64,000 bases of DNA from Psammoneis japonica (Eukaryota): NCBI GenBank assembly GCA_008632985.1, contig QPGO01000116.1, positions 186,001 through 250,000 of the forward strand, written 5' to 3'. Within the stretch, counting starts at the first letter, position 1; the number at the start of each line of letters is the position of its first letter. A model generated the notes under the pieces. That model had not been told where the DNA came from. It worked only from the letters and a program-made list of their open reading frames with translations, and did no database searches. Below are positions 1,701-60,010 of the stretch, one piece after another. A program made the position numbers and the translations under genes.

Positions 1701-1914
1701 GGTTGCTCACAATTCCATCGGTCATCTGAAAAAAAATGAGCTGCGCGTCGCCGCAGGATTTGTTGATATCGGTCATTGAATACATTTCATGACAGTTTAT
1801 ATCTTATTGGGATAAATAATGTGGCTGGCCAATTATTTGGGTTGATTTTTTGGTATATATTAGTATTCTTATACTTTTAATATACTCTCGACGGTTACAC
1901 GGAGCACTCGACTT

Positions 1915-6528: not shown

Positions 6529-6730
6529 GAAAGTTGACAAAGCTGACAAAGTTGACAAAGTTCATCAAAGCTGACAAAGTTGCCAAAGTTGACAAACTCA
6601 CCAAAGTTGACAAAATCAACAAAGTTGCCAAAGTTGAAAAAATCACCAAAAGTTGACAAAGTCACCAAAACTGACAATTTTGCCAAAGTTGACAGATTTG
6701 CTGAAGTTGACAAAGCTGACAAAGTTGTCA
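6529..6730 (+). repeat. 9-bp minisatellite (consensus AAAGTTGAC), about 20 imperfect units
   Basis: Directly visible: aagttgacaa agctgacaaa gttgacaaag ttcatcaaag ctgacaaagt tgccaaagtt gac... Confidence 0.9.
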
Positions 6731-6764
6731 TTCAGCAACCAAACCTTTGAGTGAGTCACTCTGG

Positions 6765-18429: not shown

Positions 18430-21385
18430 ACTCATGAATGTGCCAACCTTGCACAAGCTTGCTCTGGGTTGACCTTGGCTTTGCATTCTTGGAAATTGTC
18501 CAAGTAATTCAGTGGGAGCAATGCCATGATCTCTGCTGGTCAATTCACCTGCTACAGAACACCCACATGCGTGCCACAATTGAAAAACAGTCTCTGCTGA
18601 GCAACCAAAGTCAGGACTTACTGTGATGAGCTTTTTGCCAGCTGTGGGTCCAGGAGCAAGTCTCATTTCAATTTGATGGCCCAGCTCAGTTAACACCCCC
18701 CATCATCCAGTGTGCCCATGCACACATTGCTCATCATTTGCAAATGAAGGATTCCGGGGCTGGTGTGGTTTCCTGTGAGCATGACTGAACAATTTTCTAG
18801 CATGCACAGCGCAGCCCACTTGTTGCCTCTTGCACTTGCCCAGAAATGGGCAGCACACCAACAGAGATTGTTTGACATGGATTGTGGGTTGCAGACTGTC
18901 AGGTTGCCAAACCCAGGGTTGACAGCAACATGAACAATCCCACCAAAATCATCAGCAACACTTCAGAAAAGTGTTGGTGTTCATGATTGCTTTGTGGCCT
19001 GCAGGGCTGCACCTGGAACTCAGGGACCAGGTGCACGGGAGAGTGTCTTTTTGTTGTTGTCAAAGGGCAAAGGACAAACCAACAACAACTCTGGTTTTCC
19101 TTGCCCATGACATTTGGGCTGCTCTTTGCACATTTTCATGCCTTCTTGTTTGACTGCCTGTTTTGCCTGCTGCAAGAAGTGCTGGGGCATCTCTCATGCT
19201 TTTGCGCTGGCGCACCGCAGTGTGCTGTTTTCTGGCCACAGCTGTGTGCTCTGGCTGGTTTGCAAGTGGCTTCCCAAAATGCTTCAACAGGGTGTGCATC
19301 CATCAGGGCACATTGTCATGGAAAAATGCTGTTGCACATGACAAAAGATGAGAGGTGGGCATTTTTGACCAAATCAATGCACACTCTTGTTTTCTGAGGC
19401 ATGTCATGTCATTCATCCAGCTCACCTTTTGAAACTTCTCTGCATCAAGGGTTGCACTCATGATCACCAACTTGAGAACTGACTCTTGCAGCTGCCTTTC
19501 TTCAACTTTGGCAGGACTTCTGACAAAATTCTTGCAAGCACGTCAGTGGCAAGAGTCAGCTCATGAGCTTTGTCCAGAACAGCCACACATGGCGCTGCGT
19601 CAAGAGAGGGTCAGATGTGGTTTCCTGCAGCTGTGCACAGTCTGTCTCAAACTTGAACACTGTTGTGCGTAGATTGCTTTGTGACATCATCAAAACAAGT
19701 GCCCAACATGCTGTCCCAACTCAGCATCCATGTCATCAACTGCGTGAGGTGATCATCAAAAAATGATGCCCTTGCATGTCATGTTTGCTGTGCAAACACT
19801 CCATTTCCCATCCAGTCTTGTTTTGGTCTGATGTGTCCATCTTTCTCAAATTCACCATCCACAAGGCTCAGCAACAGTGCTTTGTTGTGGGGAATCTCTT
19901 GTTCTTTGTTCCTTGAGCTCTTCTCCATCACCACCTCTTGCTCTCTTCCATTCTGTCTTTGTCCAGCTTTCTTTCCCAGTGTTCTCAAAATTTGACAGCT
20001 GGTGAAGGCGCAGTTGCAAATGGCGCACTGATGAAGCAAGTTCTTTCCTCAAGTCACTTCCAGATCTGTCAAACAAAGAAAATGCAAATGTTGCCACAAA
20101 GCTTGAGCTTGACTCCAGCATGCCAGTGACATCTGCTGCACATGGCTGGCAAATCACTGGGGCCCTTTGCAGCAAAACATGTTGAGATTGCTGCTTGTTG
20201 GCAACAATCAAAATTGGTGCTTTGTCACACACCCCACACCCCATGTGTGCTGACAGGCAGACTTTGTTCAGCTGGCAGCTGGCAGGAGGTGGTGTTCCCT
20301 GAGATGTGTGGCTGCTTTGGTGTGCAACCACTCTCCAGGAGCGTTCCAAGCCATGCACTGGAGTGCTCAGAATCTTGGCAGTTTGGGTGTCGCCACTTGC
20401 AACAAGAATTGCAATGTGGCAGGCAGTCCATCTGTGCGAAGGTTTCTGCGCACATTTTCAGTTTTGTCATCCATCCCTGCCACCTCCAGCTCAAACTCAA
20501 CCAACCCAATTCCAATTGGATTGGGCCAGAGGTGGTTGGGATGGACAAAAGCACAAAACATGTGCGGAGAAATCACTGCATGGACAGACCGCACCACTGC
20601 GACTCTCATTGCAAGTGGCAACACCCAGGTTGACCTCTTGTGTTGCAGCCTTTGCATCACCAACAGCCCAGTTTTTTCATTGCTGAAGAGAGAGGGAGAG
20701 TGAGAGAGAGAGTGAAAAAGACAGAGAGACTGCATTGAGTTGAGAGTCAAACCAGTTGACTCAGCTGCTGGTCTGTTGACCCTTCAGCCACAAACACCTT
20801 GGATCTTTCTGACACAACAGCCTCAACCACATCAACAACAACAGCAGGCTGCTGATGAAGCCACCATGAAAGTCACACTCCTGACTTTGGCCAACATCAC
20901 TGTGTCTGCTGTTGTGGTTGAGCGAGCGCAGCTGGATGAATGTCTGAAGCACGCGGCCGTGCTTTGCCTTGGCCACACTCTGCTTTTTTTGTTCTTTGTT
21001 GTCATTGTCTTCACTTGGCAGATTGCTGCCATGACAGATCAATCATGTGAGAGAAAAAGAGAGAAAGAAGAGAAAGAGGAAGAAAGGGAACAAAAGCCTC
21101 CCTCAGGAGCTTTGCAGCGATGCTTTGGGGCGCCCCACCTCTCCTTGTTCAAAAAGCTTTTTTTGTGTGTGGTTTGTGAGTTTTCTCTTGTGGCTGGGCA
21201 CCGCCTCACATGCTTTGTGCTCTTGAACCCCCCTTTTCCCTCGCCAGTGGCTCTGCTCATTGTGCAGTGCGCTAGAATCTCTCTAATGCTGAGTGGTTTC
21301 CTTTCGTCGCTTTTGTCGGATGGGATGAATCTCTCCACTGTGAAAGCTGAGGGAGTCATCGCAGACACTTCGAGTTCTGGGACAA
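18430..21385. mobile_element. Block B: TpA/CpG-depleted degenerate region containing a DEAH-helicase gene fragment
   Basis: Compositional switch at both ends and no intact ORF. Confidence 0.55.
19425..19800 (-). pseudogene. Degraded fragment of a DHX15/Prp43-like DEAH-box RNA helicase
   Basis: Across frameshifts the minus strand reads DDMDAELGQHVGH, TTVFKFETD..LQETTSDPLL, AVLDKAHELTLATDVL and LKLVIMSATLDAEKFQK, then a GTGAG donor. This matches the region after motif Ia, motif II (DEAHERT) and motif III (MSAT). Confidence 0.8.
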
Positions 21386-33229: not shown

Positions 33230-34515
33230 TCAGTGCTGCATTGGTACGTTGTCGTCCATTCGCAATCTCTTGGATGAAGAGGATACACCATTCTCCTCCA
33301 TCTCGCATGTTTCTCGCTTTTCATTGTTTGATTCTAGTCCTTGGTTGTTTTGCTGTTGTGCCAAAAACTCGGCATTCCACGTGACTCGGGGTAGATAATA
33401 GGTATCGCGTCCGTGCCAGTACTTGCGTCGCACTCCATCCCAAACGCTGTCATCCACTTGAATCTCGCACGGTACAAATTCGGCATCCAATCCCAACTTG
33501 GCCAGCTGCAGCTTGACACACTGACACGCGACACCGTGGAAGAACAAATTATCTGGCGCCAAGCCATTGAAAAAGGAGTAAATGCCATGGGGGCGGCTCA
33601 AGATTTGAGGCAAGTACGCATGAAAGTCCTCCATATCCAAAAAATCCTCGCCATATGTATCAAAAAAGATCCCATCCAACACAATACCCTCTTGAATCAA
33701 TTGTGGAATCACATCTTGCCACTTTCCAAAGTAGATACGGACACCGGGTTTCTTGTCCCAATCATTGGCAATCATTTGCTTGTAAACATCCTGATGCGCT
33801 TCAATAATAACATGGAGAGCTGGCTTTAGTTGTTGCAGCGCCGAATCAATAATTCCCATTCCAAAGCCAACATTGAGTACCCGTCGTTGCGGTGTTTCCA
33901 TTAGAATTTGTGCGTGTGCCTCCATGAGAGGACGCTCCCATTCCATCATGACGGCATCCTTGTCTTGATCGAGCAACGCCGTTTTGGACGAATTGTAACA
34001 AACACTTTGATTCAAATAATCTGGTTTTGTAGACGGCTCGTGTTGGACGGGACCATTATGACGAGGATTGGTGGACCACGTGTCAGTCACAACGGCTGGT
34101 GATAATGTTGGATTTTCCCTTGTCGCTCCAAATCTCGCTTTAATCGCATGGACGCTCCCAAGAGCAACTCGGCACGCGTTCCAGCATCCACCAACAAATT
34201 CACAACGTCCCAGTGTTGTGCATTAGTAGCGTAGTTTCCGGCGCACTGCCCCATGCGATCAATGGCATTCCACGGAGCACCATTGTCCAATAAAAAAGCG
34301 CACAACTCGACATGTCCCATACTCGCAGCCACCATGAGCGGACTCTTGCCGGTCGCGTCGTCTTGTAGACTGACGAGAATGGGACGTTGATCCATCATGG
34401 TCTTGACGGCTTGAATATCGCCTCGAGAACACGCTTCCAACACAACAAGGACATCCTTATCAACAACAGGTGATGACTCGGTATTCACCTCGGCATCCAT
34501 CGTTGTCGTTGCCAT
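33230..34515 (-). CDS. RMT2: Ankyrin-repeat protein arginine N-methyltransferase 2 (RMT2/GAMT-like)
   Basis: Ankyrin TGKSPLMVAA..GAPWNAID, plus AVMMEWERPLM, VLNVGFGMGIID, DGIFFDTY and YSFFNGL. There is a one-base frameshift at a G-run near 34118. Confidence 0.9.
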
Positions 34516-34699
34516 GATTGTTGTTTGTTGATCGCAGAAGAAGAAGATGCTGGATGCTCTGTTTATCGCGGTATCGGTTGCAAAAAACAAAAAATGAGCA
34601 GATTTCTTGTGGTCCTCGCCGCACCACGAGGGATGGACAGACGCTTTGTCAATGCATTCACATCATTGCGTCATTTTCTTCATTCATTCCGTTGTCATT

Positions 34700-35440
34700 G
34701 AACGAGCTTCAAGAGCGAGAAAACTGGCGTCACAGTCTTTTATTATATTTTCCTTGTTGCAACACGAAGGCGGTTGTCTGTTGTTGTTGTTGCTGTTGTT
34801 GCTGCATTGCAACGTTGTTGCATTTCACCTGGTGTGCTTTTGAGACTTTCGCTGACTCGATGAGCCACAAGAATTCATCACGGTGGTGGTGATTCAGTGA
34901 AGAACAGTGGAGTGGAACATGTGAAAAAGCCAAAAACAGAGATGCTGCAGTTGGAGCCCCAAAGAGGAACATGCTGTTTTGTTCATTTGTTTCTGTGATT
35001 GGACAAAGGCGCAGCTCAGTCAAGACTTGCAATGACGTGCTGGCTTAAAATTCACAGCAAGTGCCCGCAAATCATGAGACAAAAATCACATCACATTCAT
35101 TGGCAAGGGCTGAATGTGGTGCATCTGCAGTGACTTGAACATCAGAAGCTGCCTGTGCCAAGGATGCGACACAATTGATTTGAGACAAGCAGCGCTGCCG
35201 CTCCCCTCTCCCATGAGCGCATCTGCGTCCAAAGACATGGGTGCCCTTGTCTTGGTGGGAACCATTTTTGAACACTTTGGAGTCAAGTTTGAGCACAAAC
35301 CACCCTTTCCAACGAGCAAGCCCTTTCACATGGTGCAGTGTCTTGTGCTGTCTGAGATGCCTCTGGAGGTGCAGGATGCCATGGTGGGGTGTCTCTTGGA
35401 GTGGTGTGGAGCAATCAACAAGAAATCACATCAGTTGAAG
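34700..35440 (+). pseudogene. Hypermutated duplicate of the upstream region and first ~118 codons of the PH-domain gene at 39658
   Basis: Aligns by eye to 39331-40013, carries stops and indels, and its TpA sites are converted to TpG/CpA. Confidence 0.92.
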
Positions 35441-35443
35441 CCA

Positions 35444-37700
35444 GTCTCTGATGGGCAGGCATTGCAAATCGAGCTGCAAATGGGACCCACATTTGGCGGC
35501 AACATTTTGAGTCAACAGTGACTTTGCAGAGCTGTTCTGGGGTGGAATGTTGTCACAGAGCTTCAAGGGAAGTGCGGTTGTGCACTTGTGTTGAAAAGGG
35601 TCATGCTGCACTGAAGCATGGCTCCAAAACCATGGAGAACGGCCATTGCAAAATCTGTCCAAGTGTTCACAATCAGTGTTTTACAAGATTCTTGCAGAGT
35701 CCTTTTTATTTCCCCCTTGCACTTCACAGTTCCTGCTCAAGCTTCTTCCGTTGCTCCTTTCAGTTGGCCTTTCCTTTGTTCTTGGCAGGGGTTGGGTGCA
35801 TTTGGGGCATCGGACGTGTGTCAGTGGTGCCGTTGGCCATCAACAGTGAGGCACAATTGTCATTGTCAAAAAGACACTTTCTGCTGGTGATCTCTCTCTT
35901 GTCAGCAGTGGCCCGGGTCCATTGTTTTGTCCTTGATTCGGCTTTTCGGACTTTCTCGTTTGGAACAAGCGAAGTGCCTCTTGGCCACACCATGCTTTGT
36001 CCGCTTCTGACTTTGGATTCCCTCGGTTTATTTCCTTGACAACTTCGCAATCGGGAATCTTCCTGCTTCCAATGCCCACAACATTGCAACCACCCGCTGC
36101 TTGTTCGCTCATTTCAACAACGGGTCGATTTTCTGTTGGTGTTCTCACCGCTCTGCATGGCACTCCTCCGCCGCAAGGTCACAGTCTTCATGGAAAGTGT
36201 GACTTCTAATGCACTGCACGATTTTGCAACCGTTCTTGTTGTTGCCTTGGGTGGGAGCTTGGGCAGCAGTCGCGGACCTGCCGCCAGGTTGCTCCGAGTG
36301 AGGAGAACTGGTCGACTGGTCACCCCAGAGAAGTGCAAATGCTTTGGTCAAGACTGGGGAGTTAAGGCCCGGCCGCCCTGAGACTAAGGAGTTCGGGCCC
36401 GGCCCAGTCGAGATTGAGGGTGCGGGCAAGGCTGACCTGACGAATCCTGGGATGAGTCAGGTTTGGCCTGCGATCATCAAAGACAGGAGCGGAGAGAACA
36501 ATCAAAGGCAGTGAGTGAGGGATGACTCGCGGTCAACACAAACAAGATGGAGAAGCAACTGAATGCACTGACTGCTGCTGTTGCGGGACGCTGCTGGCTC
36601 TTCGATGCGTTTTTCCAATTTGGCAATCGTCGCTTCGAACTTGGCCTTGTCGGCTTCCGCCCGGTCGGCCCGGAGTGTCTCGTCTGCTTTCTCCTCTTTC
36701 AACTTGCTCCAATCGAAGCTGGCGATTGGTGGCTTCCGCCCGGTCGGCCTGGAGTTTCTCGTCGATTTTCTTCACTGCCAACTCAGCCATGTCTTTGTGG
36801 CAAGAAACGACTGCCGCCAATGCCGAACTCTCCAAATCTCGTACACCCAACAAGAGACGCTTGAACGATTCTTCATTCTCCTTGGTGGATCCATTCACCT
36901 TGCTGATGGCATTCGCCTCCTTTCGGCACCCATCGGCTTTTGCCTGGAAGCTTCCCTTCTCGGGATGGTTGGGGTTGATCACAGGAAGAAAAGCATCCAC
37001 CGTCCAAAGTGCCGTGAAAAGTCGATGTTCCACCGAAGGGTAAATTGTAGACCGAATGCTTTGACAACAATTTTTTACAGAATGGCTCTTACGGAGTATG
37101 ATCATGCCTCAAATGGCGCGCTGTTGGAGACGGCATGTGGGCTTTGTGATTTCGCAAGGCAGGCTTTGGAGTTCATGTCGAGTGTGCGGGTGCTGGAGAA
37201 ATGGTCCAACAAGTCGCGAGATGGTTTCTTCCATGCGTCGGAGAAGGTGGTCGGGGTGGCATCCGAGAAAGAACTAACGGTTGTCACATGGTCATGGTCC
37301 GCGTGGATCGAGTCAGGGATTTCACGATTTTGACTCTTCCGGTCTTTGGAATTTTTTCTTGCTTGATTTTTTTCCAGATGTTTCTTCCATGCGTCGGAGA
37401 AGGTGGTCGGGGTGGCATCCGAGAACGAACTAACGGTTGTCACACAGCATGGTCCGCGTGGATCGAGTCAGGGATTTCACGATTTTGACTCTTCCGGTCT
37501 TTGGAATCTTCTTCCTCCTTGGCCTTGATTTTCTTTTCCACATTGGACTGGTCGATTTTGCAATGCTTTTGGAAAAGCATTGATGCCATGATTGCATTGC
37601 TGGGCAAAGCAAGTGGCTTGGCATAGATCCTCCTGCGACTGGAAGACCTTCTTGATGACTTCGATTTGTTGTCTAGTGTTGCATCGAAGGTGCCATGGCA
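35444..37700. mobile_element. Middle of block C: unassigned TpA-depleted but CpG-rich insertion with short internal duplications
   Basis: Fragmented minus-strand coding-like stretches (for example 36533-37105) with no recognised domain. Confidence 0.4.
37225..37507 (+). repeat. Near-tandem duplication of ~127 bp (37225-37352 and 37381-37507)
   Basis: tttcttccatgcgtcggagaaggtggtcggggtggcatccgagaa...gatttcacgattttgactcttccggtctttggaat is present twice. Confidence 0.9.
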
Positions 37701-37707
37701 TGCTGCG

Positions 37708-39184
37708 CTACCGCATGTGCTTCTTGACACCATTGCACAGACCTTCATAGTCACACGCATTTGCGGCCTCGAATGCTTCCGCACAGGTGGAGTGCCGCGC
37801 ACCAGTGTTTGTACCAGGCATTGTCAGCTGAGCCAGAGATGACACCAACGAATGTAAATCATGCTGCGGAGCTGGTTGACACCACTCTGCCAAGGGAATT
37901 TGCGGGTGAATGTGTGGTTCGGGGGCCCCAGCATACAACGTCCTCTCGTTTGCCGGCACACTGGATCCCCAGTCGTTGAGGAGTGCTTCATTGTCGCTCA
38001 AACTAAAAACATTCGATGCCCGAACATCCCGATGAATGATGCCAGCCGCGTGAATTATCTTCAACTTTTGGACAAGTTGTTCAACATGAGCTTTCGTAAC
38101 ATCTTCATGCTCAGTGGAGTGCCTTGCGGTGTTGTAAGAGAGCATCTTCCTTCTGTCGCAACAACACAAGGCACCTGCACAATTGGCGTTGTGGTGTCCC
38201 TTGTCGCATCCGAAACAATCTTCCAAGCTTTCTCTGTTCGAGAAGCATTTTCCTAGCGACACCACCATCGTCACACAGTTTCGCAACAACTGACTCCCCT
38301 CCATGCGTTGCCCCGAATGCACGACAAGTCCCTCCAGGTCAGAGAGGTTCACGAAAGGTGACAGGCAATCCATTGACAACGGGTGGTTGACGATGCCCTG
38401 TGTCTTCACACATCAGTTGAAGCCAAATTTTCATACCATGTTCAAAATTCATGACGTTTGACATGCACCATCGAACGAGAAATGGTGATGTAGTAGATCT
38501 GCAACCTTTGACGAGAACAATGAGGTGGTTGTCAGTGACAAATCCATGCCGAACTGCCTCGCAGGTTGAGGTCGAGCATTCGATGCACGTAGAGCATTAT
38601 TTGGCCTTTTTCTGACGCAGATGTTCCCGTCCAAGTGCTTCCCTTGCAGTCTCCTGCTGCAACAAAGTCTGTCGCTAATGGCTTAGCCACACCTGAAGAG
38701 AAAAAGGAAATGTCAGGGATCTTTGTGCCAAGATGTGCGATCTCATAACCGTTGTTCAATGGCGGTAGGATGTTGTGTTGGCTCAGAACGGCGTTCCAAT
38801 ACGGTTTGACGGTATTTCTTTCCGACCCACTGTTGTCTGAAGCTTGTTTGAGGTTTGAGGCACGCTGGTGGCTCAACGGAGCTTGAGTTGATGGGCATCA
38901 GTGCCTCTGGTTGCCAAGCTTCGATCCTGTCCTCTCGTGCTTTCTCATCGTAGTATTCCGCATAGCTCACAGCTCTCGATTCGTTGATCAAGCTTTTTCA
39001 ATGCCCGTAGATCCTCTTGCGCTACGCTGCGCTCCTGCTTCTGTTGTGTGAGCTGTTCAAACCGTGTCTTGAATTCCACTCGTTCGGCAACAGATACAGC
39101 ATTGAACTCTTCAGGTTCGATTGGAATATCTATTAACCATTTCTTATAGGCTTCGTTGGTTATCCTATCCCAAGGAGTCGTCAT
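37708..39184 (-). pseudogene. Disrupted gene for a restriction-endonuclease-fold + protein kinase protein (Crinkler/FunK1-like architecture)
   Basis: N-terminal helical header, KIPDISFF...AAGDCKG (PD-(D/E)xK-like), GQIMLY, and kinase motifs GIIHRDVRASN, LNDWG and HDLHSL. Several frameshifts, and apparent Tyr->His/Cys changes in the 3' half. Confidence 0.72.
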
Positions 39185-39657
39185 GATGCTTGTCTCGTTG
39201 TACTTCTGTAGCTAGCGGTATGTAGATACGGTAGATAGAGTAGCAGCTGTTGTACCTATGTCTGCACTCGCGCTGTTTGCTTTTTAGTTCCATTACTGTA
39301 TCCAATTCTACAATTATGTATGTTGTATTTGAACGAGCTCCAAGAGCGAGAAAACTCGCCTCACAGTCTTTTCTTGTTGTCTGTTGTTGTTGCTGCTGCG
39401 CCGCTGCTGCGTTGCAACGTTATTGCATTTTACCTGTGCTTTTGAGAGTTTCGCTGACTCGATAAGCTACAAGAATTCATCACGGTGGTTGTTTAGTAAA
39501 GAATAGTGGAGTGGAACACGTGAAAAAAGTGAAAAAAGACACTGTAATTGGAACTCCAACGAGGAACATACCGTTTTATTTCTGTGCATAACGACGACTC
39601 AATCAAGACTTACAATGACGTGCTGATTTAAAATTCATACTGAGTTTTTCGTAAATC

Positions 39658-41349
39658 ATGAGACAAGAATCACATCGCATTCATTGGCAAGGGCCGAATA
39701 GCACGTCTGCAGCAATTCGAATATCAGAAGCTGCCTGTGCCAAGGACGTGACACAATTGATTCGACAAGCTTTGTCGCTCCCCTTTCCCGTGAATGCGTC
39801 CGAGTCCAAAGACGCGGATGCCCTCGTCTTGGTGGGAACCATTTTTGAATACTTTGGAATCAAGTTTGAACACGAACCGCCCTTTCCAAAGAGTGAGCAA
39901 TTTCACGTGGTGCGGTCTCTCCTACCGTCCGAGCGGCCTCTGGAGGTGCGGGATGCCATGGTGGGGTGTCTCTTGGAGCGGTACGGAGCGACCGATAAGA
40001 AATCATATCAATTGCAGTGGTTCTTTGTGCCTGGGACAGAGCCATCGGGGAATATACCAAATGTTGTAGAGCTAGATGGATACTGCACATCCATGGAGGA
40101 TGACTATAGTGATGATGAAAACGACGAGGAGAGTGACAGCATCGAGGAGAGTGACAGCATCAGCAGGGAAAGCATAGCAAGGGAAAACGGGCCAGCAGCA
40201 CAAAATTTAAACAACACCAGCGCTGATGTTCCCTGGTGGAAACGAAACTCTTGTACCAAGCAACGACAAGAACAATGTCAAATGAGTAAAGCAGATCGTA
40301 TTGTTGCACGAGAACAACGTCGCCTGATGGAATTGAGCAATTGCAAATCATCTCTGGACCATCACTGTGTCTCGGGCTACCTTTTGAAGAGATCCAAACG
40401 TGACGTTCATGTTTGGAGACGTGTACATGCAAACCTGTGGTACGTGACCCGTATTCAGCAAAACAACTTGGCGCGACATGGAAAATTGACGCTGAGTCGG
40501 GCGCACCTCGAGGAACCACAACATTCGTATCGAATTCCATATGCGTTTGAACTTGTCGAGTCTGGAACATCCCATGTATTCCGTGCTTCCACCAAGAATT
40601 TACAAGCGCGGTGGGTAGCAAGTATACGACAACGCATACTGACGTGTCTGGACAATGGATCCATGGAGTATGCCGAACTGATTGTACAGGATGAAACAGA
40701 AGCACGCAACAAGCGACAGGCACAAGTGGCACTCCCAGCAGCGCTCATCGAAAACATTTCAGCCAATGATTCATTATCTTTACAACAACAAATGACGAGT
40801 GTGGTTCGTTTCGGAATGGCAGTGGCCAAGTACAGAGAGCGGTGTCGACACGTGCACGCCGTGCTTCCCCGCGAGACAATGGTTGTCGCGGCTTCCACAC
40901 GACCGCAGGACCCAAGTAGTAATGGCCCGTCAATGAGTACTACTGAGCAACCAACTCCCAAGAAACAATTGTTGGACCCAATCACGAGAGAAATGATTCG
41001 ATCTGCATGGGAAGAGGCAGCGTTGTTACTCACCGAAGCTACTCAAGTTGCGTTTGCCCTTCCAGGTGGGACAATTGCGGGATTGAACAATGGCAAGCGC
41101 TTGAATCGAACAGTGGAAACCGCATGTCGGCATGTAGATTATGTCCTTACAGGCCGATTTCGCAGCATGAATGAGAATGGTCTTTTTGAAGGAAAAGAAC
41201 ATGCAGCCCCGCCGGTTCGCAACGATGCTGATGATCCACCACCGACTGACCTGTTTGATCATTTGTTGGTGGAAATACAGGCACTCTGTTCAGCCAAGCA
41301 ATCAAAAGAACACCCGGAGACAAATGGTACATCCAATGGGGGAAACTGA
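39658..41349 (+). CDS. PH-domain protein with an N-terminal ubiquitin/RA-like region
   Basis: Intact 563-aa ORF with PH motifs SGYLLKRSKRDVHVWRRV...YAFEL...HVFRASTKNLQARWVASI. Confidence 0.82.
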   Translation: MRQESHRIHWQGPNSTSAAIRISEAACAKDVTQLIRQALSLPFPVNASESKDADALVLVGTIFEYFGIKFEHEPPFPKSEQFHVVRSLLPSERPLEVRDAMVGCLLERYGATDKKSYQLQWFFVPGTEPSGNIPNVVELDGYCTSMEDDYSDDENDEESDSIEESDSISRESIARENGPAAQNLNNTSADVPWWKRNSCTKQRQEQCQMSKADRIVAREQRRLMELSNCKSSLDHHCVSGYLLKRSKRDVHVWRRVHANLWYVTRIQQNNLARHGKLTLSRAHLEEPQHSYRIPYAFELVESGTSHVFRASTKNLQARWVASIRQRILTCLDNGSMEYAELIVQDETEARNKRQAQVALPAALIENISANDSLSLQQQMTSVVRFGMAVAKYRERCRHVHAVLPRETMVVAASTRPQDPSSNGPSMSTTEQPTPKKQLLDPITREMIRSAWEEAALLLTEATQVAFALPGGTIAGLNNGKRLNRTVETACRHVDYVLTGRFRSMNENGLFEGKEHAAPPVRNDADDPPPTDLFDHLLVEIQALCSAKQSKEHPETNGTSNGGN

Positions 41350-48168: not shown

Positions 48169-49212
48169 TTATACTAAGCTTGATTGAGAGAATGGAGTCT
48201 TCTTTTTATCACGCAGCGCCTGACTCACTTTCCGGCGTGCTTCTCGGTCATGAACGACATACCACTTTTGCTCGAGAGAATCCCACTCCAAGAAGCGACC
48301 ACCCAAATCGTGTTGAATGAACGCCACCACTTCTTTCACCATATCTGTCTTATCTTGCTTGACAGTCAATTCCTTGTAGTGGGGACGGTATTCTTCGATG
48401 ATCGCACGGTAGGAAATGTTGCCCACGTGGTGATTTGACTCACCACCACGACCGAACAAGATATCCGAATCCGTCTTGTCGACGAATTGAATGTTATCCG
48501 ATTCGACAAGTCGCTTCTTTCGTGGTGTCTTTTCGACGACTGGAAGAGCTTGAGCAAGAGACCTGGCGTGTCGGCCTTGTAGACATTTCAAGTCTTCATC
48601 AGAGCAATATGAAACTGGCTCGGGCTCTTCTTGTGGAGGGGCAGCTTCTGCTACTTTTTCATTAATGTCGAGAAGCTGATCGTAGAATTCATGCAGCCAC
48701 TCACCCGAGGTGCAGCGGTTTTCTTCTTGGGTGGCAGCTTTGCTGACTACGGGACTACCGGAATCAACGGAAACAGGATGATTCTCAACCAAGTCTACGA
48801 ATACGAGAGAGCAGTACGACTGGCTCGATGTACTGCGCTTCCTCTTGGGAGGTGGCGGGCAGATCAGTGCCTCGGGAAGGGCTTGAGCCAGAGACGCTGC
48901 ATGACGACCTTGTAGACATTCTTCTTTTGTCGAAGAAAGCTCTTCTTGATCTCGTAGGTCTTCAATGGTGCTTTCTTGGAGGGACGTTACCTCTACGGAT
49001 GTGTATCGACGTAGGTCTTCGGGTGCTCCAGTTTCCATCACGGCTGAGAAGAATTCGTCCATCCACTCACCGCTGGCGGTACGTTGCTCATGGAGAGCCC
49101 TCGTTGGAATATCCACGCAACGGTCGTTGCCGGAATCAATGTTGCTCTGAGCGACATCGTCCGTGTCGGGGAGAGCAGTGAAACTCGTCATTTTGAAATG
49201 TGTAGTCACCAT
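48169..49212 (-). CDS. Protein with C-terminal DUF6824 domain and an internally duplicated N-terminal motif
   Basis: SDILFGRGGESNHHVGNISYR...GGRFL...ARRKVSQALRD, with the repeat SGEW..EF / CLQGRHA.SLAQALP present twice. Confidence 0.85.
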   Translation of the reverse strand: MVTTHFKMTSFTALPDTDDVAQSNIDSGNDRCVDIPTRALHEQRTASGEWMDEFFSAVMETGAPEDLRRYTSVEVTSLQESTIEDLRDQEELSSTKEECLQGRHAASLAQALPEALICPPPPKRKRSTSSQSYCSLVFVDLVENHPVSVDSGSPVVSKAATQEENRCTSGEWLHEFYDQLLDINEKVAEAAPPQEEPEPVSYCSDEDLKCLQGRHARSLAQALPVVEKTPRKKRLVESDNIQFVDKTDSDILFGRGGESNHHVGNISYRAIIEEYRPHYKELTVKQDKTDMVKEVVAFIQHDLGGRFLEWDSLEQKWYVVHDREARRKVSQALRDKKKTPFSQSSLV

Positions 49213-49588
49213 AATTCTTACACGTCGTGAGCAATCAAGGTCTTGTTGCCGTGATTTTTAACTTTTGAGATGAATGGCCCTTGCTTGGAGCTGCCGTGGT
49301 GGACAAAGTTGAGGTTTTATGGGAATGCCAAGGAGTTCATCGAACTTCCTCTGTGACAAACTTCAATGCATGTCTGAGAACCACGACTAAACGCGGTGAC
49401 CCAAGTAAGACCCAAAATACGCGTTTTCTCCCTGTCCGTCGATCCGTTTTTCTTTTAGTTCGCGGATGCTTGATTCGCAGTTCGCGGATGCGATGGCTAT
49501 GGAAGTCATCATTTGACCATTCTCAAGAGTAGGATCCTTCCATCGACTGAAGAGATGACTGATGTTGGAATCCGGTTCATATCAACGA

Positions 49589-51852
49589 GTGAACCCAGAC
49601 TCGAGCAGCGCCTTTTCTGCCGTAAATGCTGACAAGATTGTCTTTGCCATCGCCACTGAAGTCGCCAACCAACCACTTTTGACTGTCCCAGAAGCTCAAA
49701 GAGATGACTGAAATTCAAATCTGTTTCCTGTTGGTGAACCCAGGCTCAAGCTGTGAAGCCACAGAAGTCACCAACAAACACTTCTCAGCCTGTCCCAGAA
49801 GTCTGCTGTTGTGTCTGGAAAGATGACCTGCAGTTGAATCTGCTTGCCATGAAGAATTGAAACCAGATTTAAGACATGTCATCTTGTGGGACACCAATCA
49901 TGTCACAGGCTGCATGGATGTCATCATCCTCATGACCTTGTCTGATGCAAATGTTGGCATCAGCAAAGCACTTCATTTCTTCAAAGTCGAAAGATCGCAC
50001 AAGAGACACTTGGTTTGACGCAGCAAGTTGTCTTGGTTGCTGCTTTCAAAGATTTGTCAAAGCCAAATGGGCTGCAGGAAAATTTGAGGAAGTCTTGCCT
50101 CTGGGGAGTGCAACCCCTGCGTTGCACTTGCAGAGCAAGCAACGCCAAATTTGCAAAGTGTCAGAGCTCTGGTGGATTTTGCAGTTGTCGGCAAACCCAG
50201 TGTGACAGCTGGCCCTGTTCCAAAGGGCTTTTCTGCTTGCAGTGCTTGGCACACAGGCTTGCTTGCCTGATGACCATGCATGCCAGCTCTGGAGGCACAT
50301 CCTTCCTGACAATTGGCAGCCCAGAAGCCACAGCACAGCTCTGCGCTTCATTCAAAAAGTGCCAGATGTGCCACGGCAAGCAAGGCCAGGTGTGTCTCCT
50401 GCATGATGTCATTTCATGTTTCCAACCAGAAAGGCGGAGGGGGCGCAGTGCTCAAAGGTGCCAGACTTGCTGGAGCAGCAACTGCAGACAAGAACAAGCA
50501 GCACCCAACAGCACAAGGGGAGAGGACAATGACTTGCCACTTCCATTTTGGCGTTTCATTTTGAGCTCCACTCCAAAAAAATGCAATGTTGTGGCATGTG
50601 ACCTGGTGACCTCTCTGGGCGTCAAAGCTTGACATGATTTTTTTTGGGAAAAAAGCTGCAAGACAGAACCAGTCAACAGGATTGTCACAAGCACCGTCAG
50701 TTGCTTCTCACAGCCAGCGTTGATCTTGTCAGCACTGGGGCTGACAGACAGGCAGCTGCAGCTTTGGCTGCAACAACAATTGCGCCAAGTTCCAGCAGCA
50801 CATTGTGCAGACTTTTGGGCAGTGCTGCAAGGTCACCTGTTCCTTGTTGTGCTGGAAAAGAGCACATTGTTGTGTTGGAGAGATGTCTGCTTCTGCACAC
50901 CAAAGTGCCTGTGCCATTGGTGGCCGCACATGCACAGCCACAAGCCCACAAGGGTGCCCTCAAGCAACTTTTTTTCTGTCTTGAACTTGTGATTGCTAAA
51001 GATCAGTGACAACAACGGCGCACCATTGTGGCTTTTTTGGAAATGCTGCCTTCCAAGACAAATTTGTGGTTGCTGATGACAGCAAGAACAACCTTGCCAA
51101 TCTCTTGTCATTCACGTGCATCATGGCCAAAGTGGTGCCACCCATTTTCGTGCCATTGTGCACCTTGTTTTCCAAGCAAATGTGCAACCTGCCTTTGTGA
51201 TCATCTTTGAAAATCTTGTGGGAGTTGAAGAGTGATCTTTTCTTGTCTCACTTGTGGCACCAAATTCATGCATGACAATTTCCTTGAGCATCTCGCTGGA
51301 TGCAAGCATCAACCTGCGGGCCCACCCCTGCTTTGTCTGCTGCAACTTTTCCCCAAAATGCCTTGACAGTGATGCAGTTTCCATTTGAGACAAGTGTCAC
51401 AGCCAAAACCAAAGGAAGAAACCAGTGCTTGAACTTGTTTGCCTTTAGTTTTTGTGGTGGATTGATGAACAATTCAGCAAAAATGCATCAGCTTGTTCCT
51501 TTTCCCGTGTGTGAACCCCACCTTGTTTTTTTTTGGAGTGGAACAGTCTCTTCTTTCTTGAAATCAAGTCACATCATGCCAGCAAACATTGTTGAACATT
51601 GTGGTCATTCAATGAACAAGAAAGAACAACAGATTATCTTGCCACAATTGAACAAATGAACAATGTTCACAGTGTTTCAAGCTTGTCGAATGGACCCGCT
51701 CAACAAACAGATTTCGTTTCACAAAAACAACAGAAGAATCAATTGTCTTGACACAACTGAAAAACAATGAATGTATGTTCTCCTTGAATGGCCAGAAAAT
51801 GAAGTAGTGCCTTCTGCTCAATCACTCGACGTTCTCTCGAGTCCCGGTGCAC
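49589..51852. mobile_element. Block D: TpA/CpG-depleted degenerate element bounded by imperfect 17-bp inverted repeats
   Basis: gtgaacccagactcgag (49589-49605) versus the reverse complement of 51836-51852, gtgcaccgggactcgag (14/17 identical). The interior is TA-poor. No transposase was recognised. Confidence 0.5.
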
Positions 51853-53484: not shown

Positions 53485-53642
53485 GGTTGATTATTTCTTT
53501 CTTGCGTTGCCTGCAGAGCAGACATGACCGAAGATGAAATCTTTCCATGCGCGCGAACATTTTCGACGACCGTCGAACGCGCACTCCGTCGTGTAGATAC
53601 AGACAAAAACAAACCACGGACGCACAAGCAAATCGACAATGC

Positions 53643-54451
53643 AAGATGCTCTGTGATTTTTGAACCCTTCGACTGTCGCGATGCCAGTCCAAAATGCAAG
53701 AAAACAGCATGAAGACTAAGTGCAAAGGTTGATGGTCCAAGACACTGACATCTTTTCAGACCATTCAATCAAGGTTTTTGTCTCCCCTCCATGCTCCTCC
53801 GAGTTTGTTCAAAGCCCAGCACATCGCAGTGCACCTGGGTGCCCTCAGAGTGCGTGCACGCCCTTCTCTCGCGAGAGGAAAAAGAGCTGCTTTTTTCCAA
53901 GGAGAGCACAACTTGTGTTTCACCTCTCAACAACAACAGCACCACAGGTTGAGTCAAACACAGCCAAAGCACAGCCTCAGAGGAGGATGGGGCAAGAAAG
54001 AAAATTCTCTCTCTCGAGCGGCAAACATGCTCTCTCAAGATGAGCCAAAGATGCTCTGTGATTTTTGAACCCTTCGACTGCCATGATGCCAGCAGCCCAA
54101 AACACAAGAAAACAGCATGAAGGCTCCCTGCAATGGTTGATGGTGCAAGACACTGACATCTTTTCAGACCACCAGTCAATCAAGGTTTTTGTCTCCCCTT
54201 CATGCTGCTCCTCCTCTCCGAGTTTGTTCAAAGCCCAGCATGTCGCAGCACACCTGGGTGTCCTCAGAGTGCGTGCACACCCTTCTCTTGTGAGAGGAGA
54301 GAGAGCTGCTTTGGAAAACACAACTTGCGTTTCACCTCTCAACAACAACAGCACCACAGATTGAATCAAACACAGCCAAAGCACAGCCTCAGAGGAGGAT
54401 GGGGCAAGAAAGAAAATTCTCTCTTGAGCGGCAGACATGCTCTCTTAAGAT
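53643..54451 (+). repeat. Tandem duplication of ~405 bp (about 53643-54040 and 54047-54451) upstream of the SAT gene, followed by a 20-G run
   Basis: aagatgctctgtgatttttgaacccttcgactg...ggggcaagaaag(a)aaattctctct..gagcggca.acatgctctct.aagatg is present twice. Confidence 0.92.
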
Positions 54452-54479
54452 GGTGGGGGGGGGGGGGGGGGGGGCAGCT

Positions 54480-57400
54480 CTCCTCATTCTGAAATGCACC
54501 AGCTCTCTGCACACACCAGTTGATTTGACAGTGTTTTTGTCAAGCCACTGGGCTTTTTTGCAAACTTTTTTTGCGCTGACATTCATGCAGAAACACGACT
54601 GCAAAGAAAAACAAAGCTTTCCTGTCTCACAGAGGTTGGTGCTGGTGCTTTAAACTGCCATCTGCAGACATTGTGCCACTTGCAGCTCACCTCTGCTGGT
54701 GCAGACAGATCTTCAAATGAGAGACTTTTGAACGAATCACAAGGTTTTTGGTGCATTCATGTGTGTTGTGCACCATGTTTAGCGCCAAACCCATGCAAGA
54801 AGATTGAGCTCCTAAATGAAGATGAGCCAACAGCCATCATGACCAAGGCAAGAATGCAAAAATTCCAAAAAACAGGTTGACAAGGCTGCATTCCATGTGT
54901 GGTCATTTGGCTGAAATTTGAGTTTGGTCTTTTTCTTTGTCTTGTGGAGAGCTCGCTGATTTTTGCTTGTGTTTGGTGTCACTCTTTCTCTCTCCTTCAG
55001 ATTGTTCAGCAGCTCTTTTCACAGTGCTTGTCTCTGTCAACTTGGTGCCAGCTGCAAACAACAACAACAACAGGAGCATCTCAATGAGGTGCACTTGCAC
55101 ACTTTTTGCACGGTGTTGTTGTGGACGATGCCTTGCAAGCACACATCAATTTTTTTTTTGCAAACAAAAGAGACACTCTCTGCACTCAGTGTTTTGAGAG
55201 TGCATGGCAGCCAGCCAAAATGCCCGCAGGCAAGTGCAAAAAGTGTGCCCAACATTGCAAGCCAGGGTGACAAGAACATTGGCAATGTTCTGGTGTTGTG
55301 GCCATTTTGCTTCACTTTGAGGCAGCAGAACTTCTTCTTGTCCAAGCAATGAAATTTGTCAACATTTTGTCACCACCTCTTCTGCCACCTTTTGTGTTGA
55401 ACAGCTGCTCTGCAGTCAACAATCTTTTCTTCTGTGCCAGTGTGCAACTCACTCAAGACTCCACCACACAGGACAGTGAACAACTTGATCTTTCTGACAG
55501 CCAGCAGCAAACAAAAAAGAGGCAAGTCAGCTTCCCCAATTTTTCTGCCCAAACAAGTGCAGTCAGAAGGTTGCTCTTTTGCATCTGAGCTTTTTGTTGC
55601 ACTGTGAAAAATGTCAGCATTTTTTGTCAAACAACAGCTGGGCATGGTGGAAGAAACAGAAAAAAAGTGGCTCAAAGAGGCAGCAAAAACAGCCGCACAC
55701 AACAGAGTTTCCTGTCAAGTTGTTCTCAGAAAAAATGACTGCCTTTTGAAGATTTTTCATCATTTGTTGTCCACACTGCCCAAGAAATGAGAATGATGGC
55801 CAGCACTTCAAAGAGAGCAGACTTGAGGAAAGAAGCAACAGAAATTGGGCAGAAGCCCACTCAAACTTGCTCACACAACATGCGTCAGCAGCATCACACT
55901 GTCTCCAACCAGCTCTGTTGAGATTCACTCTTCTGGCAACCATTTCAGAGCTGCCTCAGTCCTCCAAGGTCTGATCCTGAGGGCAAAATGGACAAGCTTG
56001 TTGTCACAACACTTTCTAAAAGTCAAAGAAGAATGACGACTGCTTCTGCAGCAGTCCACATGCTTCACGTGGAGCACATGAGTGCTGATGCACATGCCCT
56101 CTTTGCACCATCTAATTTCAGTGCTTGAGCCTTTAAATCTTGATTTCCAAAACACTCCTGTTGACCAATGACAAGATCCTTGCCAGACTCCAATGTGCCA
56201 TCTTGGGGTTGGGGGGTTGGCCTCTTCTTGCTGCATTGTGTGCCCTGGAGCTCCCCTTGCTCAAATGCCCAGCAGAGTTTCTCTGGATGCACATTTGCAA
56301 AAACATGTTGGCTTGGTGATCACTGTGCTGCAGTGCCCTCTTTCTCATTCTTTTTGTGCATGCTGAAAAAGAAAGAGGTGTGCTGATCTCATTCTCAGCT
56401 GTCTAGCATGATTTTGCCACTCTCCAAAATGAACACTCTCCAAAAAGAACAACCTCTTGTTTTGCTTTGCTCAACCTTTGTTTTGTTTTGCTCAATGAAA
56501 AAATCATCTCATGATGTGTGTGAGAGACTCTTTTTGCAGCTCCACTGCAAGACAGGGGCACTCCAGAATGAAAAGTCAAACATGACCCACTGTCAAACAA
56601 AGCAAGCATGCTTGTGAGTGACACATCATGTTTTTGTCAGTGCTGGTGCTGGCTGCATTTCAGCAGATGTTGACAAGTTTAAGTTGTCTTGTGTGTCCTC
56701 CATTGTGCTTGGTTTGACAATTTTTGATCCAGTGGGCTGTTGACTTGCACTTGGCACAAGTGAGCAACTCATGGCTGTTGTCCTTTTTTCATTGACAAAG
56801 ACTGCACCCCAAAGCCCCCAACTCACCCTGATGGCAAGTGTGCCAGTGCCAGCAAAAATCTCACAAAAGAGCACCAGTCACTGCACATGTTTCTGTGTGG
56901 CTTTTTAAAAGCAGCCAAGCAGTGGGTGCCTCAGTGCAACTGAACTCTCAGATGCCCCCCTGGCTGATGCCCCACCTGCTTCTCAACTTTTTTTTTTGTG
57001 TTGGCTGGCAGGCTTTTGCTCACAGTTGTTCAAAAAGAAAATGAGGTGTCACCTCTCCAGGTGGTTGGCTGGTCAGATTTGGCAAAGTCTCCTCACTTTG
57101 GCAAGCTGAGAATCTGGACATCCCATTGGCAACTTTGAGCACTTTGGACCACCACATCCTGGTGACTTGAGGCCAAATCTTGGGCTCACCCTTCACACCA
57201 AGTTTGCTGCACCACACATTGTCGCTGCCCAAAAAGCCACAAATTTTCATGGTGCTTGATGTCACAACTTGAAATTGCACCCAATGCAGTGCACAGTGCA
57301 CACAACAAACAATGCCACATCTTCTGCTGTGGGGCTTGTTTTTTGTTCATGTGTTCTTGGTTGTCACATCATTGATCAAGGTGCAAGTGATGTTTTGCAA

Positions 57401-58100
57401 CAACAAGATGGTGGTTGACTTGAGGGTGGCCATGTTGGATTTCTTGTTGCTGCTGACCATCATGCAATGTTTGGACATGCTGGATGCTGGCAAGCAGTGG
57501 CATGCTTTGCAAACTTTTGCAGCACTCTCATGACTGTGGCACACTTGAGTTTACAGCCACTGGGGGTTTGTTGCCACCATTGATGGCACTGTCTGCATCT
57601 GCAACATTTTCAGTTTCCAAGTGTGAGGCAGTCATTGTGTGGACAATGTGCCACACATGATTTTCAGCAAGGAGCAGTGGAAATGGGCAGCAGCGGTGGG
57701 CCTTGCAGCGCTGAGCCAAAATGTTCACAGTCATGGTTGCCCTTCCTTGTTGCACCCACATGTTGTTTGTGCAGCACTTTTTTTTTGCCAGCTGGCTGCC
57801 CCTCTTGCAGGAGTCTGCTGTGCCAGAGCTGCTGCCCTGGCTGGTGATTGGCCACCCAGTGCTGTGTGTTCATCACATCTGTGGCCACCCCTCTTGCAGA
57901 AATCTGCTGTGCCAAAACAAACTTCACCAGGAGGGTTGGGGTCTTGCAGCAGTGTGCAAGATGTGTGCTCATTGCATCCATGGTGTGGTGCCAAAGCCAC
58001 TTTTGGCTTTTGTTTCAAATGTGCTGCTCACTGGACAGTGGATTTTTTGATCTTCCACTGGTGCATGTCCTGCCACATGCATTGCAGCTCTTGACTGCTT
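54480..58100. mobile_element. Middle of block E: strongly TpA/CpG-depleted degenerate sequence, unassigned
   Basis: Composition only; no recognisable domain. Confidence 0.4.
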
Positions 58101-60010
58101 TCTTCTGTTTTTTTTCTCTTCTTTTGGTTTTGTCTCGGGAGTGAGGTTTTTGTTAGAATGATTGGGGTCTGTGGTGTTGGAAGAGGTTGGTCTGGGGAAA
58201 TGTGTGGTGGGAGGGGTGTGCGAAGCGCGCTTGGGGATGGAGAGAAAAAGGGTGGGCCCAAAGTGCAGACAGATGGTTGAAGTGAGGAGTTGTCAGCAAG
58301 GGCAGGATGGCGAAGTGGCTGAGCTTGGCAAGAAGAGAGATGGTGGGAGAGAGCACAGCCAAAGTTGAGGCTGAGGATTTGAGAGGCCCAGAGTTGAGGT
58401 GTGACGGTGTGACAAGAGGAGCCAAAGTGGTCTGGGGAAAGTTGTTTCCAGGCCATGTCAGAGTGGGTGAGGAGGTTGGAAGGGGCAAGCAGTGAATTGG
58501 CAAAGGCAGAGAAGGATGCTTGAGAGTTGGAGAAGGAGGATGGGTTTGTCCAGGGTGTGGTTTGGGAGGAAGGGGTGGGATGGAGGCGGATGTTGAAGAG
58601 GAGGAGCCAAAGAAAAAGACGTGAAAATGGTGCCCAATGCTGCCCAGGTGGTCAAATGTAAAAGGGAGGAGGAAGAGTCCAGCTTGTTTGATGGCATCAA
58701 TGACACATCAGAGCTGGGGGCAGATTGTGCAGAGCAACCAAGAAGCTTGTCCCGTGTGCTGCTGAGGTGAACCTTGTTTGGTGGGTTTTCAGGGACAGGC
58801 AACCGGGTGCAGGAAGTGGGGGAGCTGGTGGTGCGGTGACATCAACAGCCAAGAAGTGATGAGTGGACAGATGGGGCGTTGGGTGGTGTGGAGCCAGGAG
58901 TGAGTTGAGCGCTGATGTCAGCAGGGCATTGAGGGGTGGTCAGCTGGGAGACCTGCTGGTTCAAGGTGGGCTTGTTGGTGGGAGAGGCACAGGCCACAAA
59001 GGGGGGCCCAGGGTGTCAATGATGGTGTGGATGGTGTCACAAACATGGTTGGACAGCGGGCTTTTGTGCATTTTGGAGCATGCAAAGGCGCGGTCACCGA
59101 AAGGGTCAGGGCGGGCGTGGCCACATGGGCAGTCATGTTGGAGCAAAGCAGAGGAGATCATTGGGAGGCACAGCTTGCAGAGGAGAAGGAGTGTGAAAAG
59201 GTGTGATGGAAGTTGGTTGGCAGCAGAGGATCGGGAGGGAGAGTGCAGGCAAAGGCTTGTCAGAGGAGACAGAAGGGGTGGAAGGGCTGGTTGTGTGGAA
59301 GGATCAGCAAGGATCAGAGGAAGGGTGTTGGTTTTGTGGTGGTGCAAATGAAGGTGTTGTGCAAGACTGCACAGGTCATGGTGTTTGATGGCATGCTTGA
59401 GAGAGGCAAAGGAGGGGGAGTCAAAACGGAGGAGAATGGGAGCACAGTGAAGGAAGATGCGGCAGAGGGAGGAGAGGGTGGAGCGCGGGTTGGACCATGA
59501 GCTAAGAGAGGCAGAACAGCTCAGAGGGAGGTGAAAGACGTCACCACCATTGAGTGGGATGCCATGCTTTGTGCAGCACATTGATTTTGTCAGAGAGGTG
59601 ATGAGAGCTGGGGTGGCGATGGCGGAGATGTCGCGACATCCGACACCGCCTGAAGGAGCGGGCAGGTTGGCGATGAGTTTGGCAGCTGAGGGGAAAGGGG
59701 GAGAGTGTTGAGCAAGGCAAGCAAGGAAATGCAAGGAATGGCCAATGATTTTGTTGACAAAAGGCAATGCCCATTGGAAAGGGGGGTTGAGAGATCGTTG
59801 GAGTGCGCGAGGTTGAAGCACGCATCAGCCACGAGGATGTGGGTGGCAGAAGGGATGGAGCATTTCTGGAAGAGGGTGCTTTGTGTTTGTTCATTGGTGA
59901 GGCGGTTGGCGAGGTGTCGGAGGTCTGAGGCAAAGGATGTGGCTTTGTCTTGAATGAAGTTTGCTGTGGCAGAGTCGCAGTCATGTGCTCTCCTGCCTGC
60001 GACTCCCGAC
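58100..60010 (-). mobile_element. 5'-truncated, degenerate CRE-like non-LTR retrotransposon (post-RT region, Zn knuckle, restriction-like endonuclease)
   Basis: LIANLPAPSGGVGCRD, CPCG..DPFGDRAFAC..HKSPLSNHVCD, EPAGL, PADI-like, FLAVDVT and LLPFTFDHLGSIG occur in the order typical of CRE-clade RLE elements. An A-rich tail lies on the minus strand at about 58100-58130. Confidence 0.82.

Follow-up and report, generated by a model that had tools for sequence, protein, structure and literature searches.

Sharply bounded blocks of TpA and CpG loss in a genomic stretch of the diatom Psammoneis japonica

Repeat-induced point mutation (RIP) changes C:G to T:A mainly at CpA, and the affected DNA becomes rich in AT and in TpA. 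It depends on a DNA methyltransferase homologue of the RID type and acts before meiosis. In Pucciniomycotina basidiomycetes, repeats are hypermutated from TCG to TTG by cytosine deamination. At the RNA level, ADAR enzymes prefer a 5' neighbour in the order U~A>C>G and a 3' G. To our knowledge, the described hypermutations that are linked to repeats or heterochromatin (RIP, CpG decay and those of APOBEC type) all remove C:G pairs. Here we analyzed a stretch of 64,000 nucleotides from Psammoneis japonica (GenBank assembly GCA_008632985.1, contig QPGO01000116.1, positions 186,001 to 250,000; hereafter the window), in which discrete blocks have lost nearly all TpA and most CpG. The best-resolved case is a dead copy of the start of a PH-domain gene, for which an initial annotation, made by eye, had reported conversion of about 20 of 22 TpA sites to TG or CA. 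This reading was supported but incomplete: the conversion of CpG had been missed, and the copy is only one part of a block pattern that runs through the window. The erasure of TpA is real, highly non-random, correctly polarised and larger than was first noted.

Conversion of TpA and CpG in a duplicated gene start

The intact gene (39658-41349, plus strand) encodes a PH-domain protein of 563 amino acids (aa), whose N-terminal 120 residues are conserved. The source segment of the duplication (39322-40017, plus strand) spans codons 1-120 and the 336 bp that precede the ATG, and its TA and CG content is normal. The copy (34691-35440, plus strand) consists of this promoter-proximal DNA and the first 120 codons, so that upstream non-coding DNA is included, as had been claimed. 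Several indels, together with stops at codons 21 and 36, show that the copy is dead. Local alignment of the intact gene (39329-40017) with the copy (34691-35440) gave 686 aligned columns with an identity of 83.8%, including 87 transitions and 24 transversions; when the letters were coded as purines and pyrimidines, the identity was 91.9% in 681 columns. The background divergence of the copy was 5-9%. It contains 4 TA and 18 CG, where the source has 23 and 42. A 28-bp stretch specific to the copy, at 34741-34746, carries three unconverted TA (TTATTATAT) at the extreme edge of the converted domain described below; it is either a later insertion or the mark of the true left border.

The 22 TA sites of the intact gene were found in the copy as TG in 9 cases and as CA in 12, and one was kept (TTAA at 39629). 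The manual tally of 9 TG, 11 CA, 1 retained and 1 unalignable site had its counts and coordinates right, and in the formal alignment no site was unalignable. Among the 41 CG sites, 27 were changed, 14 to TG and 13 to CA. Counted per strand, A was replaced by G at 21 of the 43 adenines in TpA and at 26 of the 310 other adenines (Fisher p = 7e-10). At the background A>G rate, 3.5 hits at TA were expected, and the probability of 21 or more is 4e-16; the corrected per-base rate at TpA was about 18 times the background. This per-dinucleotide test bears out that TA changes faster than other A/T sites. The CpG changes (27 of 41, against 12 of 231 for C>T outside CpG) were raised about 10-fold, as in CpG decay of the methylation type. 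Outside TpA, A>G was also more frequent before a pyrimidine (18 of 131) than before a purine (8 of 179, p = 0.006), which explains why 17 of the 39 AT sites are now GT, AC or GC. In the reverse check, 48 of the 147 TG and CA dinucleotides of the copy stood opposite TA or CG of the intact gene, and its sole new TA stood opposite TC.

The direction of the change was examined with 11 diatom orthologues. At 38 codons differing between the two copies, the orthologues favored the intact residue 22 times and the copy residue 5 times, with 11 ties. The informative CG codons (R7, R21, R36, V84, R86, P90, R98 and R108) all make the intact gene ancestral, and so does the sole informative TA codon, I22 (ATA>ACA). 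An independent comparison was available at the margin of the largest block, where an edge repeat unit (1894-2118, plus strand) retains TA and CG and its inner copy (3977-4180) shows TG or CA in their place. Both of its 2 TA and 4 of its 6 CG sites were changed in this way, and the reverse was seen at 0 of 38 TG/CA sites. Since the orthologues, the edge repeat and the Tyr codons of the pseudogene described below agree, the use of the intact open reading frame (ORF) as the ancestral state is supported, and the conversion runs from TA and CG to TG and CA. Under the reverse polarity, the copy would be ancestral-like and the intact gene would have gained TA and CG, for example by CpA>TpA changes of RIP type; RIP is known to generate TpA out of CpA and TpG. 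We give this practically no credence, because the orthologues match the intact gene at 22 of 27 informative codons, all CG-codon cases included, its TA and CG content equals that of the rest of the window, and the Tyr codons belong to an unrelated family.

An artefact of sequencing or assembly, in which modified bases of these regions were misread, would have to be considered because strand-specific miscalls at a palindromic site would yield TG and CA at 50:50. A public sequencing run from this organism (X1, with a depth of about 56-60) gave independently built contigs of up to 315 kb, and these covered 33500-34974 and 35266-35861 as single paths. They carried the converted letters over 34691-34974 and 35266-35440, with no difference within the copy; run X1 may itself be the source of the assembly, and its contigs differ from the window elsewhere. 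If modified bases had been misread, a bubble would be expected at every such site; the X1 contigs had none. The indels and the 24 transversions of the copy also argue against misreading, so that an artefact is extremely improbable. The region 34975-39430 was broken into short variant contigs in X1, in the manner of repeats or diverged haplotypes.

The two products were nearly equal in number at TA (TG:CA = 9:12) and at CG (14:13), and their order along the copy was random, with 29 runs against 25.8 +/- 3.5 in 10,000 shuffles. This result indicated that both strands were affected, as the initial annotation had stated, and that the hits were unclustered. Double hits were absent, from TA to CG (0 of 22) as well as from CG to TA (0 of 41). 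This fits events fixed singly, not a saturating attack on two strands; part of any TA>CG doubles could be hidden by later CpG decay.

These observations bear on the possibility that the blocks are retro-inserted copies which had been hyperedited as RNA or cDNA, with ADAR- or ADAT-like A>I and APOBEC-like C>U changes. A preference for 5' T does recall adenosine deaminases acting on RNA, and inserted units would have sharp edges. Such editing, however, is clustered on one strand, and here the strands were equal and without runs. The neighbours were also wrong for ADAR, since a 5' A was not favored (13 of 117, against 21 of 43 for 5' T) and a 3' G was disfavored. The copy includes the 336 bp 5' of the ATG, the conversion continues beyond the duplicate and part-way into a resident pseudogene, and internal tandem repeats were converted in place, some sites being resolved differently between units. 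Editing before insertion is thus very unlikely, and the earlier preference for a process on chromosomal DNA over ADAR-type editing holds.

The flanking bases influenced the conversion. By 5' neighbour, A>G in the copy occurred at 21 of 43 adenines after T, 13 of 117 after A, 7 of 97 after C and 6 of 96 after G; by 3' neighbour, it occurred at 19 of 78 before T, 14 of 78 before C, 9 of 121 before A and 5 of 76 before G. Within TpA, 15 of 25 adenines were changed in TAY and 6 of 18 in TAR. The TA dinucleotides that remain in the core blocks showed the complementary bias: 30 of 43 were YTAR, against 264 of 1545 outside (p = 1e-13), and 1 of 43 was RTAY, against 515 of 1545. The preference can be described as T-A-Y with A as the target, or equally as R-T-A with T as the target. 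As a predictor of the conversion outcome, the TAY rule was weak (9 of 14 mixed-class sites). For CpG, tetranucleotide counts in the blocks suggested that A-CG is spared, but the copy disagreed (ACG 8/27, CCG 8/16, GCG 5/17, TCG 6/22), and we make no claim of a CpG flank preference.

Converted blocks, their borders and a kinase-like pseudogene

The composition of the window is bimodal. Five blocks, about 23.5 kb in total or about 37% of the window, have an observed/expected ratio (o/e) of 0.05 for TA and 0.26 for CG, with TG/CA at 1.7-1.8 and an unchanged GC content; across the block measures used, TpA o/e was 0.04-0.05, CpG o/e 0.17-0.26 and TG/CA about 1.8. Outside the blocks, the ratios for TA and CG were 0.53 and 0.94 in ORFs (26 kb) and 0.60 and 1.00 in non-ORF DNA (14.5 kb). 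Because the blocks differ from both of these classes, the effect is limited to domains and is not the general fate of non-coding DNA. The block edges are less than 100 bp wide, and TA-rich spacers often adjoin them. The longest gap free of TA measures 1603 bp; normally there is one TA in every 26 bp, and at the density found outside the blocks such a gap has P = 3e-27.

The largest block (1901-10450) is TA-free and CG-poor, contains internal tandem repeats and has no Pfam domain. The second (18651-21270) and fourth (49551-51800) are likewise TA-free and CG-poor, and the second includes the 1603-bp gap. The third is the converted domain of 34750-38560. The fifth (53601-60050) is TA-free; it is CG-poor up to about 59050, and its final kilobase is CG-normal and purine-skewed. 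At 58100-60050, the plus strand is strongly purine-skewed (GC skew 0.47 over 58001-60000), TA-free and CG-normal, and a minus-strand ORF of 287 aa in this region gives a translation rich in Pro, Ser, Leu, Cys and His without Pfam relatives.

Tandem arrays were present within blocks at 6530-8500 and 53643-54452. They comprise about 22 repeats of a 9-bp unit (AAAGTTGAC), 5 repeats of a 44-bp unit, further units about 160-315 bp long, and two copies of a 412-bp unit with 86% matches. Copies of a unit disagree at some sites, which read CG, CA or TA depending on the copy. Most conversions are common to the copies within a block, with only 1-3 CA/TG doubles per pair, and therefore the process could not be dated by the tandem copies.

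Little else was recognizable in the blocks. Pfam searches with 28 block ORFs, and then with the 150 longest of the 172 stop-to-stop ORFs (at least 75 aa), found nothing in the blocks above the curated score except a kinase fragment, and the ORF at 36536-37108 (minus strand) had no homologues at E <= 0.001. The longest block ORFs translate to strings rich in Cys, His and Leu that are not protein-like. Self-comparison of the window in purine/pyrimidine code gave no pair of gene and block besides the dead copy and the edge repeat. In seven diatom-like metagenome loci (69,432 bp), no 500-bp bin had fewer than 12 TA; these contigs are short and gene-dense, and are uninformative on how widely such blocks occur. 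The DNA of the blocks is non-functional and probably consists of silenced repeats and pseudogenes.

The dead copy forms one edge of the 3.8-kb domain at 34750-38560, whose CpG-poor core covers only about 34880-35900. The other edge falls in a kinase-like pseudogene (37711-38997, minus strand), which is broken into five frame pieces and has a TGA at 38341 where all 6 of 6 relatives have Arg; its start may be the ATG near 39183. Relatives of the pseudogene reached 64% identity in the stretch that matched best, and had 43-57% in the multiple alignment. Tyr codons always contain TA, and thus columns with a conserved Tyr make a clean probe of conversion. Eleven such columns were available. Outside the domain (38964-38591), 5 of 5 are still TAT or TAC. 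Inside (38548-37749), 4 are CAT, 1 is TGT and 1 is TAT, so that 5 of 6 were converted, the converted ones lying at 38548-37854. The frameshifted 5' part of the pseudogene has thus kept its Tyr codons and a normal TA density and the 3' part has been converted, which places the end of the domain within the pseudogene, near 38560. The converted part (37711-38412, minus strand) is visibly rich in Cys and His, a footprint of the change from TAY and CGY to TGY and CAY codons, and such enrichment could help to spot converted pseudogenes in protein sets.

The loss of TpA was separable from that of CpG. Four stretches (20851-21250, 35651-37650, 53751-54150 and 58801-60050) are low in TA with normal CG, and the leftmost 190 bp of the dead copy kept CG. 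In the pseudogene, 6 conserved Arg codons are still CGN and 1 is TGA, against 5 of 6 Tyr codons converted. These results indicated that the TpA process is faster or further-reaching than CpG decay.

A mutation spectrum strongly biased against TpA and CpG could produce blocks without any targeting, if they were old unconstrained DNA at equilibrium and the rest of the window were under selection. The background divergence of 5-9% would be time enough for a process 10-18-fold faster to saturate, and the blocks have no coding signal, the kinase pseudogene being the only one of the 150 ORFs to pass the curated Pfam score. However, the 14.5 kb of non-ORF DNA outside the blocks is gene-like in TA and CG, the disabled 5' part of the pseudogene retains all five of its conserved Tyr codons next to its converted 3' part, and the edges are narrow with TA-rich spacers alongside. 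We therefore regard the absence of targeting as unlikely.

Targeting by homology offers another explanation. In a RIP-like burst, duplicates would be recognised, for example before meiosis, and then heavily mutated within one round or a few; the target here would be TpA (and CpG) instead of CpA. The best-resolved victim is indeed a duplicate, and its left end lies about 60-90 bp from the left edge of the domain. Internal repeats in the blocks, the fragmentation of 34975-39430 in X1, the resolution of identical sites as CA or TG between copies or haplotypes, and the sharp edges are also in line with such a burst. RIP would mutate both copies and only the duplicated stretch, whereas the intact partner 4 kb away is unmutated, and the domain exceeds the duplicate by 3 kb and stops near 38560, inside a pseudogene of another family. 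The edge of the first block cuts across a repeat unit instead of tracking it, and a saturating burst on two strands should leave the double hits that were absent here. The RIP indices were reversed, with TpA/ApT at 0.049 in the blocks and 0.579 outside and (CpA+TpG)/(ApC+GpT) at 1.91 and 1.28, and C>T at CpA amounted to only 5 of 98 sites in the copy. A homology-triggered burst thus seems rather unlikely, and we saw no sign that the duplicate status of the gene start was relevant to its conversion.

Proposed processes and candidate chemistry

The explanation that we consider probable, although far from certain, is hypermutation at the DNA level within sharply bounded silent domains, by two transition processes, each with its own sequence context. 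Both would act on chromosomal DNA and on both strands, with one hit per event. The first would turn CpG into TpG or CpA by the usual decay of methylated cytosine; we infer that 5-methylcytosine (5mC) underlies this part. The second would turn TpA into TpG or CpA, replacing A:T by G:C at the T:A pairs of TpA. It would be fastest at R-TA-Y and slowest at Y-TA-R, and would run ahead of CpG decay and slightly wider. The location of the dead gene start inside such a domain would then be the reason for its conversion.

Several observations weigh against this explanation or limit it. The copy retains the ancestral residue at 5 of the 38 codons (S40P, E49A, I68V, K78T and Q81P), so some of the background differences arose in the living gene, and the rate ratios are conservative but inexact. 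Direct polarisation is limited to I22 and the Tyr codons, and the other TA sites follow mostly from the overall pattern. The domains are presumed to be silent chromatin. The TpA part would come from an enzyme or a base modification. Sharp edges fit equally with inserted units that were mutated as units. 

Conversion of TpA is possibly still active. The 40 differences listed between the window and X1 include 4 CA<->TG doubles (35988/9, 36676/7, 37443/4 and 37445/6), besides single differences of TA or CG against CA or TG. The excess of doubles is only suggestive, as its P value varies between 0.001 and 0.2 with the local divergence that is assumed.

Two chemistries could account for the TpA part: deamination of adenine, and oxidation of thymine to the mispairing 5-formyluracil. 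In the first, which is hypothetical for DNA in nature, adenine would be deaminated in DNA with a T-A-Y preference; tRNA adenosine deaminases follow a similar 5' T rule. TadA acts on U-A-C in the anticodon loop (U33-A34), where the target A follows U (T in DNA). The T-A-Y preference observed here fits this 5' T rule of TadA/ADAT-type enzymes, and the same data fit a thymine-directed process at R-T-A. In the second, thymine would be oxidized with an R-T-A preference, for example to 5-formyluracil. The second candidate would join 5mC before G and T before A under a single rule, 5-methylpyrimidine before purine.

Stramenopiles encode uncharacterised deaminases, including deaminase-SAM-Tudor fusions (PMC3239186), which serves as a lead only. 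N6-methyladenine (6mA) was considered as a cause and is disfavored; according to a preprint (10.1101/2024.10.28.620566), Phaeodactylum has 5mC only and 6mA is without a mutagenic footprint.

More speculatively, diatoms, or this lineage, might possess a chromatin-targeted system that turns the T:A pairs of TpA in double-stranded DNA into C:G or G:C. This is possible, and we propose it only tentatively. Such a system could rest on an adenine deaminase that naturally acts on DNA, or on an enzyme that oxidises thymine to a mispairing product. If it exists, it would defend the genome by irreversibly clearing silenced DNA of TpA, and hence of TATA elements, of Tyr and Ile codons and of two of the three stop codons, beside 5mC decay and in advance of it. 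An enzyme system dedicated to T:A pairs would be categorically new.

Even apart from such a system, a near-complete and sharply bordered removal of T:A at one dinucleotide would add a new mutational process, and would hint at a natural activity akin to that for which adenine base editors were engineered. TA-free blocks also hide where repeats came from: no Pfam domain was left in the 150 ORFs, and long spurious ORFs with much Cys, His and Leu arise. They would thus mislead the annotation of repeats and genes in diatoms. The TA-free signature is easy to scan for and could map long-term silent chromatin in diatoms by sequence alone.

Gene content of the window and comparison with known systems

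The window is gene-dense eukaryotic DNA with 46-50% GC, and it is diatom nuclear DNA. The best 100 relatives of the 563-aa ORF were PH-domain proteins with 38-41% identity, none above 41%, and the named organisms among them were all diatoms (Cylindrotheca, Fistulifera, Bacillariaceae, Attheya and an MMETSP record beginning 'Asteri'). In the acidic low-complexity part of this gene, at 40429-40431, contigs of runs X1 and X2 had 15 extra bases (1 + 14), which keep the frame and reflect a difference in length between haplotypes or strains. Other ORFs encode trigger factor, serine acetyltransferase, Rap-GAP and SET/JmjC proteins. A SET-domain ORF (13735-15276, minus strand) adjoins a JmjC/Cupin_8 ORF (13024-13734, minus strand). 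Since the end of the first ORF is where the match to Cupin_8 starts, the two (13024-15276) probably form one gene, split by a stop, a frame change or a short intron. Three DUF6824 ORFs (49-1404, 11108-12958 and 48169-49212) occur in this one window, and the segment 1143-1428 matches 11222-11507 in inverted orientation with an identity of 70%. Searches for RNA genes found neither a tRNA nor an Rfam family in the window.

Full-text searches of the literature yielded no description of TpA hypermutation. We could find no described counterpart for the TpA half of the pattern, and ordinary 5mC decay suffices for the CpG half. We rate the phenomenon as belonging with the hypermutation of silent or repeated DNA.

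Among the known systems, RIP of Neurospora and other ascomycetes is alike in that transitions accumulate in discrete non-functional or repeated segments, in a dinucleotide context and within sharp limits, and that coding capacity is irreversibly destroyed. Unlike in RIP, the blocks show mainly A:T>G:C at TpA, the GC content is unchanged (0.484 vs 0.476) and the partner copy is untouched. The TCG>TTG mutation of Pucciniomycotina is likewise a lineage-specific hypermutation of repeats with its own sequence context; the A:T>G:C component found here is absent there.

ADAR hyperediting and the A-to-I editing of mRNA by Tad2/Tad3 in fungi (a subject of PMC11087585) share with the blocks an A-to-G change that favors U or T on the 5' side. 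These act on RNA and leave clusters on one strand, whereas the changes here are heritable, made in DNA, found on both strands and unclustered, with a preferred 3' pyrimidine. Methylation of diatom transposons has been reported (PMC12344493). The decay of CpG in methylated repeats corresponds to the change of CG to TG or CA on both strands at about 10 times the background, and the CpG half needs nothing further. Such decay spares TpA; in the blocks, by contrast, the loss of TpA is more complete than that of CpG (o/e 0.04 vs 0.17), is faster and extends into DNA with normal CG.

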